Source: Escherichia phage vB_EcoM_PHB13
Reading direction: 5' to 3' (one strand)
Length of the DNA stretch: 64,000 nt
Sequence record: MK573636
Positions 12,783 through 64,000 of this stretch are shown one piece after another. Each line of letters starts with the position of its first letter. Positions within the stretch are counted from its first letter, which is position 1. Both the position numbers and the translations under genes were made by a program. The notes beneath the pieces were generated by a model. That model was not told where the DNA came from and did not search any database. It saw only the letters and a program-made list of their open reading frames with translations.

Positions 12783-13251
12783 AATTGATATCTATGCGGG
12801 TGGACCTTATCCATCGGGTGAATTGAGTAATTTCAATAAAAGACCATTCCGTCTATTTGGTTGCGATATTAACAGCACAGAAGGATTTTTACAGGGGCTA
12901 AGATTTAAGAACCCTCAGAGACAAAGAGAAATCTTTTTGATGCATGGTGGCAAAGCAAAAAGAACCGGAAGAACTGAAAAGATTGAGAATCACATGTTAT
13001 ATTTTCAGGGTCGCCCGATTCATCGAATGAGTGAGCATTATTACAAACTGGTACATCTGGCATTTGTTACGATGGCACGGAATAACCCAGAATTTTGTAA
13101 AGCATTACTCTCGACCGGAAATAAGAAATTACGTCATAGTATAGGTGGAACTGATCCGTTAAAGACTATATTGACTGAATCGGAATTTTGTAGTATCCTC
13201 AATGATATTCGTGAACGTTTAACAAAACGAGGTGAAAATGTCAATTCTTAA
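12772..13251 (+). CDS. NADAR (YbiA/DUF1768)-like protein
   Basis: Motifs LSNFNKRPF, STEGFLQG, GKAKRTGR, LLSTGNKKLRHS match NADAR family signature from memory. Confidence 0.55.
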   Translation: MTSEIDIYAGGPYPSGELSNFNKRPFRLFGCDINSTEGFLQGLRFKNPQRQREIFLMHGGKAKRTGRTEKIENHMLYFQGRPIHRMSEHYYKLVHLAFVTMARNNPEFCKALLSTGNKKLRHSIGGTDPLKTILTESEFCSILNDIRERLTKRGENVNS

Positions 13252-14734
13252 TATCATTAATCAGCTTGCAGCAACAGACAAAACATCGCTGAAAGAAAAG
13301 ATCCTGAAAGAATCTGCAAGCAATGAAACGCTGAAAGAATGCTTTTATCTGGCATATTGCAAACAGGTTACGTTTGGCGTAAAGAAATACGATAAACCAT
13401 CGCGTTATTCGTCTGTATTGTCTTTATCCGGTGCATTACAGGTCTTTAAAAATAAACTTGCCACGCGTCAAGTAACTGGTAACGCAGCATTACAGCTAGT
13501 TACCGATACTCTGACTTGCTTGTCAGAAGATGATGCTAAAGTTGCAATGATGGTCCTGAATCGTGATCTGGAATGTGGTTGTTCCGCTACCACTGCAAAC
13601 AAGGTATGGAAGAAACTGATCCCCCAGCAACCGTGTCACCTTGCATCGTCATGTTCTGATAAGACTATTGCTAATATCAAGTATCCGGCGTATGCACAAC
13701 TTAAAAGCGATGGCGCTCGTGGTATGGCTGATATTGACGGGGAAACATTAGCAATCTATACCCGTTCAGGTAATACCTATCAGGGACTTGATGATTTGTT
13801 TGCGGTTTTAGAGCGTCTACGAGGCCGTGGAATTGTTCTAGATGGCGAATTGGTATATATGCCTACCCTTTCGCAAACACCAGCGCAGAACTTCGTTGAG
13901 AGCATTTATGATGGTACTCTGTCATGGATATTTGAAGAAGAGGAAATGCCATTAACGCCAGTAGCGGAAGCAGTAAAAGAATCCGTTGTTGCAGATCGTC
14001 AGACCGGAAATGGTATCCTCAACAAATCACTGAAAGGAACTATTCCAAAAGAAGAAGCCCAATGTATTGTTTACACTGTCTGGGATGTTATCGACCGTGA
14101 TGTGTATTACGGAAACGAGAAAGCAACGAAGCAATATAAAGATCGATTCGAAGAACTAAAACAGATTGTTGAAGAACTTAACGATCCTCGTGTTCAGATA
14201 ATCGAAAACACTGTAGTTAACAATATAGATGAAGCTCGCGAAGTATATCATCGCTATGTAAACATGGGCTTAGAAGGTATTATCCTTAAAAATTTACATG
14301 GTGTATTTGAAGATCGTCGCAGTAAAGATCAGGTTAAATTTAAAGAAGTGATTGACTTCGACGCGGAAATTGTTGATGTATATCCGCATAGTAAAGACCC
14401 TAATAAGGTAGGCGGTTTTACTGTCCGTAGTGCGTGCGGACGAATGATGACTAACACCGGATCGGGATTGACTGACACCACAACCGAAAAAGGTGATGAT
14501 GGTATTGAACGTGTAATTCCGTTCGATCGTCGAAATGAACTCGACCGAGAAATGTTATGGGCTGACCGTCATAACCTGATTGGAAAAGTCATTGAGATGA
14601 CATGCAACGGGTATATCCGCAGCAAATCACGTAAAGAAGATGAACCGGAGTTCTCTTTATTTCTCCCGATCATCAAACGTATTCGCTACGACAAGACCAC
14701 TGCAAATACAGTAAAAGAGGTATTCGATGTGTGA
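13232..14734 (+). CDS. gp30: ATP-dependent DNA ligase
   Basis: 500 aa; colinear with T4 gp30 incl. RDLECG and adenylylation motif KSDGARG. Confidence 0.9.
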   Translation: MKMSILNIINQLAATDKTSLKEKILKESASNETLKECFYLAYCKQVTFGVKKYDKPSRYSSVLSLSGALQVFKNKLATRQVTGNAALQLVTDTLTCLSEDDAKVAMMVLNRDLECGCSATTANKVWKKLIPQQPCHLASSCSDKTIANIKYPAYAQLKSDGARGMADIDGETLAIYTRSGNTYQGLDDLFAVLERLRGRGIVLDGELVYMPTLSQTPAQNFVESIYDGTLSWIFEEEEMPLTPVAEAVKESVVADRQTGNGILNKSLKGTIPKEEAQCIVYTVWDVIDRDVYYGNEKATKQYKDRFEELKQIVEELNDPRVQIIENTVVNNIDEAREVYHRYVNMGLEGIILKNLHGVFEDRRSKDQVKFKEVIDFDAEIVDVYPHSKDPNKVGGFTVRSACGRMMTNTGSGLTDTTTEKGDDGIERVIPFDRRNELDREMLWADRHNLIGKVIEMTCNGYIRSKSRKEDEPEFSLFLPIIKRIRYDKTTANTVKEVFDV

Positions 14735-40108: not shown

Positions 40109-40696
40109 ATGTTTGACCAGTTACAAGATCTATTTGGAGTAAAACCACTTCGTAGATGTGCTCTTATAGGCTCTAGAAAAGCGCCTAACGACATTTTGAT
40201 AATGGCTAGTACCATTGGGAGGGTATTGTCAGAAAATCGCGTTGTAGCGCATTCTGGAGGGGCTTACGGTATGGACAATGCTTTCATGAAGTATTACGAC
40301 CCAGATTATAGAAAAATTTTCATTCCAAATTGGAAGTTTTACGATCATAAGCATAATGGTCGTGATGTGATTGCGTGGCAGACTCTAGAGCAAAAGAATC
40401 TGGCGATGGATGAATTAGAACACGTTTATGATAATCCTCGTTCTATACCGTTATACATGCAAAATCTGTTTTCTAGAAATGTTGCTCAAGTCTTAGGTGA
40501 GACACTTGATGATCCTGTAGATTGTGTGTTATTTTGGGCGAAAGAAGTTAATGGAATCGTTTCGGGAGGAACTCGAATTGCTGTCTATATTGCTCGTAGA
40601 CATGGGATACCATGTTTTAACTTATATCATCAAGAAAATAGATCCGCCGTCGAAAAAATATTGGGCGGATCTGACTTGTCTTGGTTAGATATTTAG
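40109..40696 (+). CDS. SLOG-superfamily (DprA/Smf- or LOG-like) Rossmann-fold protein
   Basis: ALIGSRKAP, AHSGGAYGMDNAF, NLFSRNVAQVLG, NGIVSGGTRIAVYIARRHGIPCF match DprA/LOG signatures from memory; convergent with gene 24. Confidence 0.45.
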   Translation: MFDQLQDLFGVKPLRRCALIGSRKAPNDILIMASTIGRVLSENRVVAHSGGAYGMDNAFMKYYDPDYRKIFIPNWKFYDHKHNGRDVIAWQTLEQKNLAMDELEHVYDNPRSIPLYMQNLFSRNVAQVLGETLDDPVDCVLFWAKEVNGIVSGGTRIAVYIARRHGIPCFNLYHQENRSAVEKILGGSDLSWLDI

Positions 40697-60384: not shown

Positions 60385-62187
60385 TTAACCTACCCTTAGC
60401 CAACGATAGACAGTTCTGTATGGAGGAAGAATACCAATCATTGACGGGTCGGTATTTCCCTGATTAACTTTAACATTATCTTCGCGATATTTGGTAAACG
60501 CTGGACCTACTGCATCAGGATCTACCTGACAACCACCGATAATAATATTTCCGTTATCATCTTTTACAAGAACTCGATCGTCGCTCTGTAATTCAGGAAT
60601 CATATTTTTCTTGATCTGGTATGCAACATCACCACCGTTACCCCCTGCGGTGTGTGTAGGTTGACCATGTGTATCAAGATCGTTGTTGTTTAGTGCGAAG
60701 TTTTGATCGCTTGCGTCAGAAGACCAACCAACTAAAAATTCTTTTTCTGCATAACGTACCCATGTACCAAATCCCATATATGTCGCTGGGTTAGCTGGGT
60801 TATGCGCATTTTCATAAATTGTGCCTATAGGATAGAAAATATCGAATATGGAATAGATATCCATCACACGACCTGTATAATCTTCCATTGGGCGTTTAGT
60901 TGCTTGGCTTGGATTCTGGAAATCGGTATATTCAATTCGATTTGTCAGAGTAACTTCATCTTCGTTATTAAGATAGATTTTATCTGCTTTTTCTTTAATA
61001 CCGCCTACACCGTCCCATTCCATTAATGTTCCGATATCATTATTAAACCAGCGAATTGTGATAGTATCTCGGTTATCTAGTGCTTTAGATAATTTAATAC
61101 CAGTCACCACGCTGTTTTCGTCGAACATCAATGAATAATCTTCCCCAGATTCCACCCATTGACCGCCAGCAAGTACGCAGGTTTCTTCCGTTTCACCGTC
61201 AGCGCCTTCACAAATAAAGGAAGGTAAATCCGCATCACCCGCTTTAATCATTTGTGTGCCGTTGATCAGCAATTCAAATGAATTTGGATTAATAAGATCT
61301 CGCTTACTTACGCCTAATTCAACATTAGTAAATTCTTTCTTATTAGCTAGTTCACCAACCCAAACTTCACCAGGGATGGATTCCAAAGTGGTCATTCCTG
61401 TTTCATAAACGCGGATTGTATGAGTAATATAGCTTGACCGGAAGGATGCGATACCGTCCATATAAGTTATGATTTGAATGGTATCACCCGCCGAACAAGG
61501 GAAGCGTAATTTAATGCTTTTACCGTCCAGCGGAACAATATCACCGTTTTCACCGATTGATCCATAGTTAGAATCATCGGTTAAATCCTTGCCATAATAA
61601 AGCAAGTTACCGCGATAATACACTTCAACATTTCGAATATTGTAAGTATTGGAACCAAACACATTAGGGAAGTCTGTTTGTCCTTCGGTTGCAATATAAA
61701 CTTCTTTGGCAACTGTGCTTAAATCGGAAGTGGTGATAGTATCTACTCGTTTATTTTCGACATATTCCCAACGTCCAGGCGCACAATAAACCAATTCAAC
61801 ATCCATGAAATCTTTATACAACTCACGGTCGATTGGAGATCCCTTAATGGTATCACCTTGTGCTGGCTTCAACGTTACGTTATGTGCAGCCCATGAGCGC
61901 CAAACATCACGAAGTTTAATTGTTTTATTATAATCACTCGCGCTTCCTTTAGGCAATTCAACAGAAACAGCGTTGTTCGTTGTATTAATCGCCCATGCAT
62001 CACCAAAATTTGGTTTTAATACTGGTTGTGTGTGAGTTTTCCACGCGCCGGATGCATGAGGGATATCACCATCCCCCAGCTTATTATAAAGTTCAGAAAA
62101 GTTGTCATTAATCTTTTGACCACCTTTTCTTAGATAATCACCTGTACCGTCATCAACAACGTTACCGATATTAATTAATTGTTTCAT
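60385..62187 (-). CDS. gp10: baseplate wedge subunit
   Basis: 600 aa (T4 gp10 602 aa); synteny. Confidence 0.8.
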   Translation of the reverse strand: MKQLINIGNVVDDGTGDYLRKGGQKINDNFSELYNKLGDGDIPHASGAWKTHTQPVLKPNFGDAWAINTTNNAVSVELPKGSASDYNKTIKLRDVWRSWAAHNVTLKPAQGDTIKGSPIDRELYKDFMDVELVYCAPGRWEYVENKRVDTITTSDLSTVAKEVYIATEGQTDFPNVFGSNTYNIRNVEVYYRGNLLYYGKDLTDDSNYGSIGENGDIVPLDGKSIKLRFPCSAGDTIQIITYMDGIASFRSSYITHTIRVYETGMTTLESIPGEVWVGELANKKEFTNVELGVSKRDLINPNSFELLINGTQMIKAGDADLPSFICEGADGETEETCVLAGGQWVESGEDYSLMFDENSVVTGIKLSKALDNRDTITIRWFNNDIGTLMEWDGVGGIKEKADKIYLNNEDEVTLTNRIEYTDFQNPSQATKRPMEDYTGRVMDIYSIFDIFYPIGTIYENAHNPANPATYMGFGTWVRYAEKEFLVGWSSDASDQNFALNNNDLDTHGQPTHTAGGNGGDVAYQIKKNMIPELQSDDRVLVKDDNGNIIIGGCQVDPDAVGPAFTKYREDNVKVNQGNTDPSMIGILPPYRTVYRWLRVG

Positions 62188-63038
62188 GTAGCAACCCCGA
62201 TTTTAATAGTGTCTACGGCTTTAACTGCTAAACGAATATTTTCGCCAGTAGCCTTATACTCTGCATATACTTTATCGCCGGAACCGATGAAATAACGAAC
62301 CGTGTATAGTTCATCTTCTGTCTTCTGCAAAACTGCATATTCCGTCGCATAAACTTTTCCGGCTTTAGAATCAATCATCAGTAGCGTTTCACTTGAACGC
62401 ATTTTTGAACCGGATGTATTGCTAGCGGTAGTTAATAATTTGATGGAAACGTATTCTGTTTTTGCGGCAATAGCAACGTTTGTTGCTACTCCAGTTACGT
62501 TAACTGTTTTATCTAATGGCGTTGTTGTATCGGTAAACATACTTTCGATACCCAATCTCCACGTTACGCGACTACCTTCAACGGCAGTACACCAAACAGT
62601 GACTTTTGAAAATGGTTGTGTTATTGTAGCATCACCGGAATAACCGCTAATAGAATCACCTGCTTGAGTTCGAATATTGAGCGGTGTCGTCGTTGAAAGG
62701 CTACCGTTACTATTTATGAATACAACACCCTCGCCGACCTTTGCTTTAGGTAGAATAGCAATAAGTGCGCCTTGAGTTGTATCGATATCGTGTAGACTCC
62801 CAATCTCAACAGCGGAACCAGCGTAGCTTTGACGTGGATGTTTCTGATAGTATCCGGTTGCATGAATAACCATTCTTCCCACGCCGTGGTCTACGTCTTT
62901 AAACCGTTGATCAGCGAATGCGTCATAGATTGAATCAAAGTTATCGTTAATTTTATTACCGCCATCATATAAGATATCGCCAGTCGATGGATTGCCGACA
63001 GTACCTGTGTCTATTCTTTTCTTTGGAACTTGTGCCAT
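62184..63038 (-). CDS. gp9: baseplate wedge / long tail fibre socket
   Basis: 284 aa (T4 gp9 288 aa); synteny; late promoter upstream. Confidence 0.8.
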   Translation of the reverse strand: MAQVPKKRIDTGTVGNPSTGDILYDGGNKINDNFDSIYDAFADQRFKDVDHGVGRMVIHATGYYQKHPRQSYAGSAVEIGSLHDIDTTQGALIAILPKAKVGEGVVFINSNGSLSTTTPLNIRTQAGDSISGYSGDATITQPFSKVTVWCTAVEGSRVTWRLGIESMFTDTTTPLDKTVNVTGVATNVAIAAKTEYVSIKLLTTASNTSGSKMRSSETLLMIDSKAGKVYATEYAVLQKTEDELYTVRYFIGSGDKVYAEYKATGENIRLAVKAVDTIKIGVAT

Positions 63039-63065: not shown

Positions 63066-63073
63066 TATTTATA
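63066..63073 (-). promoter_or_regulatory. late promoter -10 box TATAAATA for gene 9
   Basis: Exact TATTTATA on + strand 28 nt upstream of gp9 ATG. Confidence 0.65.
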
Positions 63074-63083
63074 AAATACATAC

Positions 63084-63110
63084 AAAAAAGCCGCCCACAA
63101 GGACGGCTTA
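63084..63110 (-). terminator. rho-independent terminator (AGCCGTCC-TTGT-GGGCGGCT + T7) after methyltransferase gene
   Basis: Same hairpin family as + strand 38549 and 39704. Confidence 0.75.
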
Positions 63111-63113
63111 TAA

Positions 63114-63953
63114 TTAAATGTCAAACAAATCTGAGAGCGTCCCAGACTCGCTTTCCTGTTTCGGTAAGATAATCTCCTTACTTTCTTCTATTTGTTCGTT
63201 AGGACGTGATTTAGGAGCTTCTACGGCTTCTTTCTCGTAATACCGAACCTCAACCACTTCTGTTAAAACGTTGGTACTATGCCATTCATCGCGATAGATT
63301 GATGTATCGATCCCACATCCGGCATAAGTCACCAAACCAGTTTGTTTGCTCCATTTTAGATATTTATTAGACTTCATGGTCCCGTCATAATAAGGTCTAC
63401 CAGAATAGGCAAAACCAGCGGAACCAACAGGAACAATAAAATAACCTACATCTGCAAACTTCTGGCCTAATGTCATAACCTTAAATTCAAATTCTCCGCC
63501 AGTGTACTCAAATACATCCTTTGTGTCGGTTGTATTGATTTTCCCGAAAGGTGGATTGCTGATCACCACATCGAATTTTTCGTTTGACTCAAATTCGAAT
63601 ACATCGCTGGTGATCCATTCTGCTTCCGGTAATAGTCGCTTGCCAATCCGCGCAAATTCTGGATTGAGTTCGACGCATACGATCTTTTCTGGCTTACAAC
63701 GATGTAACATACAAAAAGATAAGCGACCGATCCCAGCACAAAGATCTAATACTTTTCCTGTGCAATGTGCATCGATGGTAAAATCCCATGCAAGCCCTTC
63801 TGGGGTAAAGAATGCACCGGAACCACCTAGCCCATCGCCATGATAGTTATTATAGCAAAATTCTTTTTCTTCATATGTCAATGGGCGATCTGAATTAATC
63901 AACTCCATTGCTCGGTCGTGTAATTTTTGTTCTTGTTTAGAAAGTCGTGCCAT
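63114..63953 (-). CDS. orphan N6-adenine DNA methyltransferase (gamma-class, NPPF)
   Basis: FFTPEGLAWDF, SAM-binding VLDLCAGIGRL and catalytic VISNPPFG; lies between gene 9 and the upstream gene ending at 63953. Confidence 0.65.
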   Translation of the reverse strand: MARLSKQEQKLHDRAMELINSDRPLTYEEKEFCYNNYHGDGLGGSGAFFTPEGLAWDFTIDAHCTGKVLDLCAGIGRLSFCMLHRCKPEKIVCVELNPEFARIGKRLLPEAEWITSDVFEFESNEKFDVVISNPPFGKINTTDTKDVFEYTGGEFEFKVMTLGQKFADVGYFIVPVGSAGFAYSGRPYYDGTMKSNKYLKWSKQTGLVTYAGCGIDTSIYRDEWHSTNVLTEVVEVRYYEKEAVEAPKSRPNEQIEESKEIILPKQESESGTLSDLFDI

Positions 63954-64000
63954 TATTTAACCTTTGCTGTGACGGTAACGCTATGCCCCAAATAAACATG
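63953..64000 (-). CDS. 3' end of upstream late gene (partial; possibly baseplate gp8 by synteny)
   Basis: Open frame to window edge; stop overlaps methyltransferase start (TAATG). Identity not verifiable. Confidence 0.3.
   Translation of the reverse strand, partial: HVYLGHSVTVTAKVK

Follow-up and report, generated by a model that had tools for sequence, protein, structure and literature searches.

A Predicted Clamp-Binding Tail Suggests a Replication-Coupled Role of a Probable Orphan DNA Methyltransferase in RB49-like Phages

Introduction

A gene for a protein of 279 amino acids (aa) on the minus strand of Escherichia phage vB_EcoM_PHB13 (sequence record MK573636) probably encodes a DNA methyltransferase that is expressed early, is tethered to the sliding clamp gp45, and acts during replication. 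The gene was analyzed within a stretch of 64,000 nucleotides (nt), which is called the window throughout the text, and it is located upstream of the baseplate gene 9. The evidence consists of a C-terminal tail that ends like the clamp-binding tail of the phage DNA polymerase gp43, of a transcription unit that has an early-class promoter and is flanked by terminators in close relatives, and of clamp motifs at the C-termini of many homologous proteins.

The window is from a Krischvirus (RB49-like phage); its last 2 kb share 98.0-98.7% identity with the 30 Krischvirus records that match best, which include RB49, Phi1, JEP8, and TB34. The methyltransferase region was found in 58 phage records, with DNA identities of 90-99%, and 1729 homologues of the methyltransferase were found in the database. 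Together with the match to the protein family PHROG 3820, these numbers show that the open reading frame did not arise by chance. It is already known that the gene is conserved, and it is annotated as an orphan methyltransferase of Krischviruses; the new part is the idea of a tether. The RefSeq name of the RB49 homologue (RB49p143, RB49ORF143w) is "DNA methyltransferase", and other records carry the names "release factor glutamine methyltransferase" or "hypothetical protein". Nolan et al. 2006 contains a table with weak methyltransferase Pfam matches for RB49ORF143w. Beyond that table, a literature search for RB49p143 by name, locus tag, and accession retrieved nothing.

Results

The Methyltransferase Ends Like the DNA Polymerase gp43

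The C-terminus of the methyltransferase is ...QESESGTLSDLFDI, with GTLSDLFDI directly before the stop codon. The C-terminus of the DNA polymerase gp43 of RB49 is ...YEKVASLTDLFDI, with ASLTDLFDI directly before the stop codon. When the window and two RB49 loci, i.e., the 14 kb around the methyltransferase gene (L001) and the locus with gene 43 (L003), were translated in six frames, the string DLFDI was found only twice, namely at the very ends of these two proteins. In T4, the C-terminus of gp43 is EKASLDFLFG and is the known tail for binding to the gp45 clamp, and the gp43 tail of RB49 is homologous to it. A review on T4-type phages describes the tails of gp43, gp55, and gp33 as interchangeable clamp epitopes, which are carried on variable, unstructured linkers. 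The RB49 gp55, the late sigma factor, has the C-terminus SLDQFYEIEN.

The tail of the methyltransferase is conserved independently of the linker in front of it. The representative of a cluster with 96% identity (P0001) differs at five positions of the 26-residue linker, and its tail is unchanged. In a homologue with 68% identity (P0002) the linker is unrelated and longer, yet the C-terminus is TLTDLFDI. The C-terminal 60 residues of gp43 are conserved at an identity of 95% or more in 58 phage records, and the methyltransferase is likewise present in 58 records.

The pattern was also found in the DNA ligase that is encoded in the window (gene 13238-14734). In an alignment with T4 ligase, the sequence DGTLSWIFEEE is found where the T4 enzyme has its gp45-binding loop (EPEGLDFLFD). 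This T4 loop, which binds with a Kd of about 10 uM, was correctly predicted by the same similarity reasoning. The alignment suggests that the contact between ligase and clamp is conserved and that the clamp motif of the genus may be [ST]L[ST]x[LI]F[DE]. The slightly wider pattern [ST]L[STD]x[LIF][FY][DE] is thus common to gp43, gp55, the ligase, and the methyltransferase of Krischviruses, and the fuller consensus derived from the gp43 and gp55 tails, the ligase loop, and the methyltransferase tail is [ST]L[STD]x[LIF][FY][DE][IE]. A clamp-like tail was not found on the RB49 Dam protein.

Further observations concern the motif. Within the ligase gene, the codons for GTLSWIFEE are at positions 13913-13939 of the window (plus strand), and the peptide has the same pattern as the tails of gp43 and the methyltransferase. 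Another string in the ligase, GLDDLF, was considered as the clamp loop and was rejected, because its counterpart in T4 ligase is a conserved segment of the core and not the clamp loop. At the 3' end of the RB49 gene 43 (L003, 15793-15810) the codons TTT GAC ATT contain the -35 box TTGACA of the annotated early promoter of the next gene; the final codons of gp43 double as this box, and therefore the clamp-binding tail and a promoter element are located on the same nucleotides. Lastly, a gene for a DprA-like recombination mediator (PHROG 768) at 40109-40696 (plus strand) would start with MFDQLQDLFG if this ATG is used, and this N-terminus resembles a clamp-binding motif.

The Cassette Layout Points to Early Transcription

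The window stops 47 bp upstream of the ATG of the methyltransferase gene, so the remaining cassette was taken from relatives. RB49 is 98.5% identical to the window, and the order in its locus L001 is gene 8, a terminator of 12 pairs, the promoter TTGACA-16 nt-TATAAT, the open reading frames (ORFs) p140, p141, and p142, the methyltransferase gene, a terminator, the late-promoter box TATAAATA, and gene 9. The promoter matches the sigma-70 consensus at 12 of 12 positions. TB34 has the same promoter, terminators are annotated after gene 8 and after the methyltransferase gene, and two small ORFs precede the latter. A more distant, metagenomic relative (L017) encodes a methyltransferase with 65% identity (P0003). 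The small ORFs are absent there, and the order is gene 8, terminator, TTGACA-17-TATAAT, methyltransferase gene, terminator, TATAAATA, and gene 9. This arrangement points to an insulated unit that would be transcribed early by sigma-70 RNA polymerase, although it is located between the late genes 8 and 9.

Annotations of RB49 fit to this layout. In Nolan et al. 2006 the cassette promoter is the predicted early promoter Pe:73830, and the two terminators are given as "8-->RB49ORF140w" and "RB49ORF143w-->9". A nearly identical promoter module (GGTGTTGACAA...GTATAATGCTCACATC, preceded by a T-run) is present upstream of RB49p055, within the region of the early genes and on the strand that is typical of them. 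The terminator of the methyltransferase gene corresponds to L001 7110-7089 and has nine pairs, six of which are G-C pairs; the window has the identical sequence there. Within L001 (14 kb), the perfect late box TATAAATA occurs only at 7074-7067 before gene 9, and again the window sequence is the same. No late box was found upstream of the methyltransferase gene in these 14 kb. The sole near-variant, AATAAATA, differs from the late consensus at one base and is located within the methyltransferase gene at about aa 195 (63361-63368 of the window, minus strand). It is probably a chance occurrence that cannot drive the methyltransferase gene, and a terminator follows.

A first-pass annotation of the interval 63084-63953 had described an ORF of 279 codons with the motifs FFTP, DLCAGIG, and NPPF, a start codon that overlaps the stop codon upstream, a terminator of its own, and a site at which T4 has no gene. 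The ORF, the motifs, the overlap, the terminator, the neighboring genes, and the gap in T4 were all found, and therefore these observations were confirmed. The ATG (63953-63951) shares one base with the TAA of the upstream ORF (63955-63953), resulting in TAATG. The part 63084-63113 of the interval is non-coding and contains the terminator stem-loop, which is followed by a T-run. The T4 genes 8 (end at 87155) and 9 (start at 87219) leave a gap of 63 bp, in which no gene is annotated. The genes downstream of the methyltransferase gene encode homologues of gp9, gp10, gp11, gp12, and wac.

The same annotation had placed the gene between baseplate genes, coupled it to a late structural gene, and proposed late expression together with the virion genes. 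The comparison with relatives, which it had suggested, verified the insertion between genes 8 and 9 in RB49, TB34, and L017, but the gene directly upstream is not a structural gene. It is a small cassette ORF of 109 aa, to which the methyltransferase gene is coupled in translation, and which is homologous to RB49p142, belongs to PHROG 12630, has no assigned function, and has no Pfam match. The upstream ORF is thus not a virion gene, a terminator follows gene 8, an early-class promoter precedes the cassette, and in the 14 kb of RB49 the only perfect late box is past the methyltransferase terminator; therefore, late expression with the virion genes is not supported. The other cassette ORFs upstream of the methyltransferase gene likewise match PHROG families without an assigned function, and Pfam gave no match for any of them. 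The base composition of the cassette did not differ from that of the flanks, and therefore there is no sign of recent import.

One observation concerns the small ORFs. RB49p140 and RB49p141 (L001 8271-8517) match the two halves of one PHROG family of 85 residues (16603). In TB34 they are a single ORF, and therefore a frameshift or a sequencing error is probably present in the RB49 record.

The Methyltransferase Has a Gamma-Type Core

The assignment of the protein to the class-I S-adenosylmethionine (SAM) methyltransferases is supported, with the gamma motif order FxTP -> D.CAGIG -> NPPF. Judged by its sequence, it is most likely a small orphan N6-adenine DNA methyltransferase of the gamma type. 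In a family alignment of 27 sequences FFTP, DLCAGIG, and NPPF are invariant, and E95 and D117 are invariant or nearly so. The protein has a full-length match to PHROG 3820 (E = 2e-117; protein residues 1-250, profile positions 1-246 of 255), the family name of which, 'DNA methyltransferase', is an annotation only. The highest Pfam score was obtained for MTS, a generic family (38.6 bits, E = 1.1e-9, above the cut-off), and Eco57I (PF07669) also scored above its cut-off (27.4 versus 25.3 bits). The NCBIfam matches were only partial and far below the equivalog cut-offs, i.e., 37.6/199.1 bits for PrmC, 29.2/295 bits for RsmC, and 16.4/350 bits for TrmN. The Pfam search did not reveal a match to MethyltransfD12 / Dam. 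RB49 has dam as a separate gene (RB49p063), so the homologue of RB49p143 is a second methyltransferase. Neither the separate Dam nor the clamp-binding tail had been part of the first-pass annotation.

The AlphaFold2 model has a mean predicted local distance difference test (pLDDT) value of 83.9. An N-terminal helical hairpin is combined with a Rossmann core that extends to about residue 245 and in which about 50 residues are inserted between the final strands, and the residues 246-279 are disordered. A close solved relative was not found in the PDB by either single-sequence or profile searches; the best match had an E-value of about 3e-4 and covered the SAM-binding part only. The cassette contains no nuclease gene, and a conserved partner gene was not found either, as the upstream ORF is absent or different between genera. 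The designation as an orphan enzyme thus proved to be correct. In two homologues, that of Dickeya phage JA29 and P0125, the protein is joined to a portion of the DNA-methylase domain PF01555. Taken together, the motif order of the proposed gamma-class N6-adenine DNA methyltransferase was verified, and DNA is the best candidate for the substrate, but an RNA target is compatible with the fold and the sequence.

Clamp Motifs Are Frequent in the Methyltransferase Family

The survey of tails included the 150 top-ranking representatives of the family (50% identity). The core was complete in 147 of them, and 102 had a tail of at least nine residues. The motif Q[LFVIMA]x[LMFI]F was present within the last 14 residues of 23 of the 102 tailed representatives, and shuffling of the tails yielded a mean of 0.12 and a maximum of 2 in 1000 shuffles. 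The shorter motif [LMIF]F occurred within the last 12 residues in 53 of the 102 cases, with an expected number of 7.1 +/- 2.5. Several further representatives resemble the hexapeptide form (QLALGL, QLSLLS). A homologue from a lambdoid phage ends with QQLDLFGEAA, and its gene follows directly after the replication genes O and P. Its QLDLF is presumably the canonical beta-clamp motif. That motif is reportedly QL[SD]LF, as described by Dalrymple and colleagues in 2001. The frequencies of the clamp motifs thus greatly exceed the chance level, and the motifs appear to have several independent origins within the family.

Among the matches listed, the chromosomal homologues have no tail; they are 236-243 aa long and end directly after the core. 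They are mostly from Citrobacter, and also from Enterobacter, Klebsiella, Salmonella, and Pantoea. The homologues in Citrobacter freundii chromosomes (L005-L008) and in L020 are located in islands with many small ORFs of unknown function, and they look like parts of integrated mobile elements rather than core genes. The tail-less Citrobacter copies adjoin an HNH gene, and one is at the edge of an island, which gave no clue to the function. The copy in L020 has a QLSLF tail and is near genes for a ParB-like protein and an Xre/RES toxin-antitoxin system.

In RB16, GAP161, and KP15 the methyltransferase gene lies between the replication genes 41 and 61 (61.1/61). An exact covariation of the tails of methyltransferase and gp43 was not found in these other T4-like genera (RB16, KP15; GAP161 and RB16 are from one genus, so the former contributes little), and in genera of the RB16/KP15 type the clamp is only a possible partner of the methyltransferase. 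The RefSeq start codons of the RB16 and GAP161 genes appear to be placed too far downstream. The KP15 homologue is annotated only as hypothetical, and it was missed in a published study on DNA modification in KP15/KP27.

Coordinates of the Features

The features of the methyltransferase gene and its surroundings are compiled in Table 1.

Table 1. Positions of the methyltransferase gene, its parts, and neighboring elements in the window, and of homologues in other genera.
Feature	Position	Strand	Remarks
Gene 9, baseplate wedge tail-fibre connector	62184..63038	-	first late gene past the cassette; ORF list, RB49 annotation
Late-promoter box TATAAATA for gene 9	63066..63073	-	downstream of the methyltransferase terminator; T4 late consensus from papers
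Intrinsic terminator stem-loop of the methyltransferase cassette	63088..63109	-	followed by T-run to ~63079; terminator scan, TB34 annotation
Methyltransferase coding sequence	63114..63953	-	279 aa, ATG start; homologue of RB49p143 / RB49ORF143w; ORF list, PHROG, Pfam, RB49 annotation
C-terminal tail TLSDLFDI, aa 272-279	63117..63140	-	predicted gp45 sliding-clamp epitope
Linker, disordered, aa 246-271, APKSRPNEQIEESKEIILPKQESESG	63141..63218	-	pLDDT ~50; length and sequence vary among orthologues
Catalytic core, folded, aa 1-245	63219..63953	-	N-terminal helical hairpin and Rossmann fold with FFTP, DLCAGIG, NPPF
NPPF, aa 133-136	63546-63557	-
DLCAGIG, aa 70-76	63726-63746	-
FFTP, aa 48-51	63801-63812	-
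Upstream cassette ORF, 3' end (last 16 codons including stop)	63953..64000	-	RB49p142 homologue, 109 aa, PHROG 12630
Homologues in Pseudotevenvirus, Slopekvirus	RB16, L004 8841-9662; GAP161, L012; KP15, L015 9001-9777

Discussion

The results can be combined to a mechanism for the methyltransferase. The enzyme would be made early alongside the replisome, from a self-contained sigma-70 unit that is flanked by terminators. It would consist of a core of 245 aa, a disordered linker of about 26 aa, and a tail of eight residues that copies the clamp-binding tail of gp43 (SLTDLFDI). The gp44/62 loader would place gp45 clamps on the phage DNA at primer ends, and once a clamp is present on replicating phage DNA, the tail TLSDLFDI could dock into the hydrophobic pocket of gp45, which is the site used by the polymerase peptide of RB69. 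In this way the enzyme would accumulate on the new phage duplex, slide along it, and methylate it soon after synthesis. For a minimal enzyme without a recognition domain, such a tether could provide a higher local concentration, some processivity, and a bias towards replicating phage DNA. The likely benefit would be a protection of the phage DNA from restriction. Self-methylation against restriction, which had also been proposed in the first-pass annotation, is plausible, and a protective role would fit to the TB34 DNA, in which modified nucleosides were not detected by high-performance liquid chromatography and mass spectrometry (HPLC-MS).

Several points weigh against an early, clamp-tethered DNA methyltransferase, and some of them favor other explanations. 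With regard to the tail, 14 of the final 15 nt of the methyltransferase gene and gene 43 are identical, so an old recombination event could have made the tail, and in gene 43 the same nucleotides form the -35 box of a promoter. In addition, the RB16/KP15-type tail [LN]FTF[RTV]IE differs from the gp43 tails of the same phages (SLNTLFGDDW and SLNDLFGDW), and a [DNT]LF core is the sole overlap of methyltransferase and gp43 tails in RB16 and KP15. Gene 43 of the phage studied here is outside the window, and its tail was taken from RB49 by virtue of the near-invariance over 58 records. The tail could thus be a functionless relic of recombination with gene 43 or a coincidence, and the DNA methyltransferase would reach its DNA by diffusion like T4 Dam. 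This explanation is unlikely, as the tail was kept while the linker changed in P0001 and P0002, the codons just upstream of the final 15 nt (T/S-L-S/T-D) differ synonymously between the two genes, and clamp motifs occur in the family far above chance and with apparently independent origins. Furthermore, the tail forms the extreme C-terminus and is preceded by a disordered linker, and the same arrangement is found in gp43, gp55, and gp33. With regard to the timing, the cassette promoter is also outside the window, and its early activity was deduced from the sequence. Moreover, in the excerpt of the list of predicted RB49 early promoters (Nolan et al. 2006), no entry except Pe:73830 is on the plus strand. 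A coupling to a late structural gene, with late expression and methylation of progeny DNA just before packaging, would agree with the location on the same strand within the late baseplate cluster and with the overlap of the ATG and the upstream stop codon, and some read-through of late transcripts of gene 8 is possible. It is nevertheless very unlikely, because the upstream ORF is small and non-structural, a terminator is present past gene 8, the cassette has an early-class promoter that matches the consensus, the layout is the same in L017, and a late box upstream of the methyltransferase gene is absent from the 14 kb of L001.

The substrate has to be considered as well. The fold and the sequence fail to separate a DNA target from an rRNA target, as METTL5 and PH1948 score like DNA enzymes. 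The Pfam family N6_Mtase (PF02384) stayed below its cut-off (16.7 versus 20.4 bits), with the generic MTS family scoring best, and a separate target-recognition domain is not recognisable in the AlphaFold2 model. In the Durham analysis of TB34 and SAP nucleosides, HPLC-MS revealed no detectable modification of TB34 DNA; the paper covers only cytosine derivatives and does not mention adenine methylation (PMC13390438), so N6-methyladenine (m6A) is neither supported nor refuted by it. The protein could instead be an RNA or protein methyltransferase (RsmC-, METTL5-, TrmN6-, or PrmC-like) that acts on the rRNA, tRNA, or a release factor of host or phage. The fold neighbors, the generic profile matches, and the database names 'rRNA guanine-N2-methyltransferase' and 'release factor glutamine methyltransferase' would agree with such an enzyme. 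Against it stand the equivalog scores, which are far under the cut-offs (37.6 versus 199 and 29.2 versus 295 bits), and the number of aligned residues, which is 206-217 for HsdM-type enzymes versus 171 for METTL5. Neither a polymerase-type clamp tail nor the beta-clamp motifs in the relatives would have an obvious role in such an enzyme, the gene is among replication genes in other phages, and some family members are fused to a DNA-methylase domain. An RNA or protein substrate is therefore quite unlikely.

A clamp-tethered DNA methyltransferase of this kind has similarities to several known systems. With the gamma-class N6-adenine DNA methyltransferases (type I HsdM, M.TaqI, M.BseCI, and the methylase domains of Eco57I/MmeI) it shares the order of the motifs X, I, II/III, and IV. 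In contrast to these, the phage enzyme has only the core of 245 aa, without a target-recognition domain, specificity subunit, or partner nuclease, and only the phage enzyme has a predicted clamp-binding tail. T4 Dam and other orphan enzymes of phages are likewise phage-encoded, have no nuclease partner, and are presumed to methylate the own DNA against restriction, but T4 Dam belongs to a different family (MethyltransfD12 is not matched here), and RB49 has its Dam separately (RB49p063). The ligands of gp45, i.e., the tails of gp43, gp55, and gp33 and the loop of T4 ligase, also have a short hydrophobic-acidic epitope, and the tails among them are at the end of a variable, unstructured linker as in the methyltransferase, for which binding is a prediction from the sequence. 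The nearest structural neighbors, which are also the nearest by sequence in the PDB, are METTL5 and PH1948 (COG2263, rRNA m6A). All of them are small, have NPPF, and lack a target-recognition domain. The sequence match to METTL5/PH1948 is weak (E = 3.8e-4 over about 75 residues), and METTL5 requires TRMT112, acts on rRNA, and has neither a clamp motif nor a link to replication genes.

The modification of Krischvirus DNA has a further aspect. TB34 and SAP are 99.96% identical, and glucosylated hydroxymethylcytosine is present in SAP DNA and absent from TB34 DNA (PMC13390438). Known genes for this pathway are absent from Krischviruses, and the authors offer no explanation (PMC13390438).

In the literature searches no report was found that describes a DNA methyltransferase of a phage or a bacterium with a clamp-binding motif; the coverage of the literature was incomplete, and an earlier description is possible. 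A methyltransferase was not found among the gp45 ligands in the review on the T4-type clamp or in the literature searches. The only combination of methyltransferase and clamp that is mentioned in a 2022 review on sliding clamps is that of DNMT1 and PCNA. In this eukaryotic case a short clamp-binding motif recruits a DNA methyltransferase to newly replicated DNA. DNMT1 is a cytosine-C5 maintenance enzyme of an unrelated family, and its motif is N-terminal, so that the parallel is one of mechanism only.

Beyond Krischviruses, the chances are about even that small DNA methyltransferases of phages and other mobile elements are widely recruited to the sliding clamp by short, interchangeable C-terminal tails and methylate the replicating DNA of their own element. 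Within such a family, there is a similarly balanced case for a division by clamp, with QLxLF tails in enzymes that use the host replisome and a copy of the gp43 tail in RB49-like phages, which have their own clamp.

If the tail binds gp45 and the QLxLF tails bind the beta clamp, this would account for the timely methylation of a fast-replicating genome and for a possible confinement of the methylation to phage DNA. Methyltransferases would then join the 'tool-belt' clients of the clamp in bacteria and phages, and the combination of core, linker, and clamp motif would be a sequence rule for finding such enzymes. Replication-coupled methylation that is selective for the DNA of the element itself would be the equivalent of DNMT1-PCNA in prokaryotes and viruses. 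The genus Krischvirus is used in phage collections and therapy studies, and the mechanism could bear on how RB49-like phages handle restriction and BREX-type defences.

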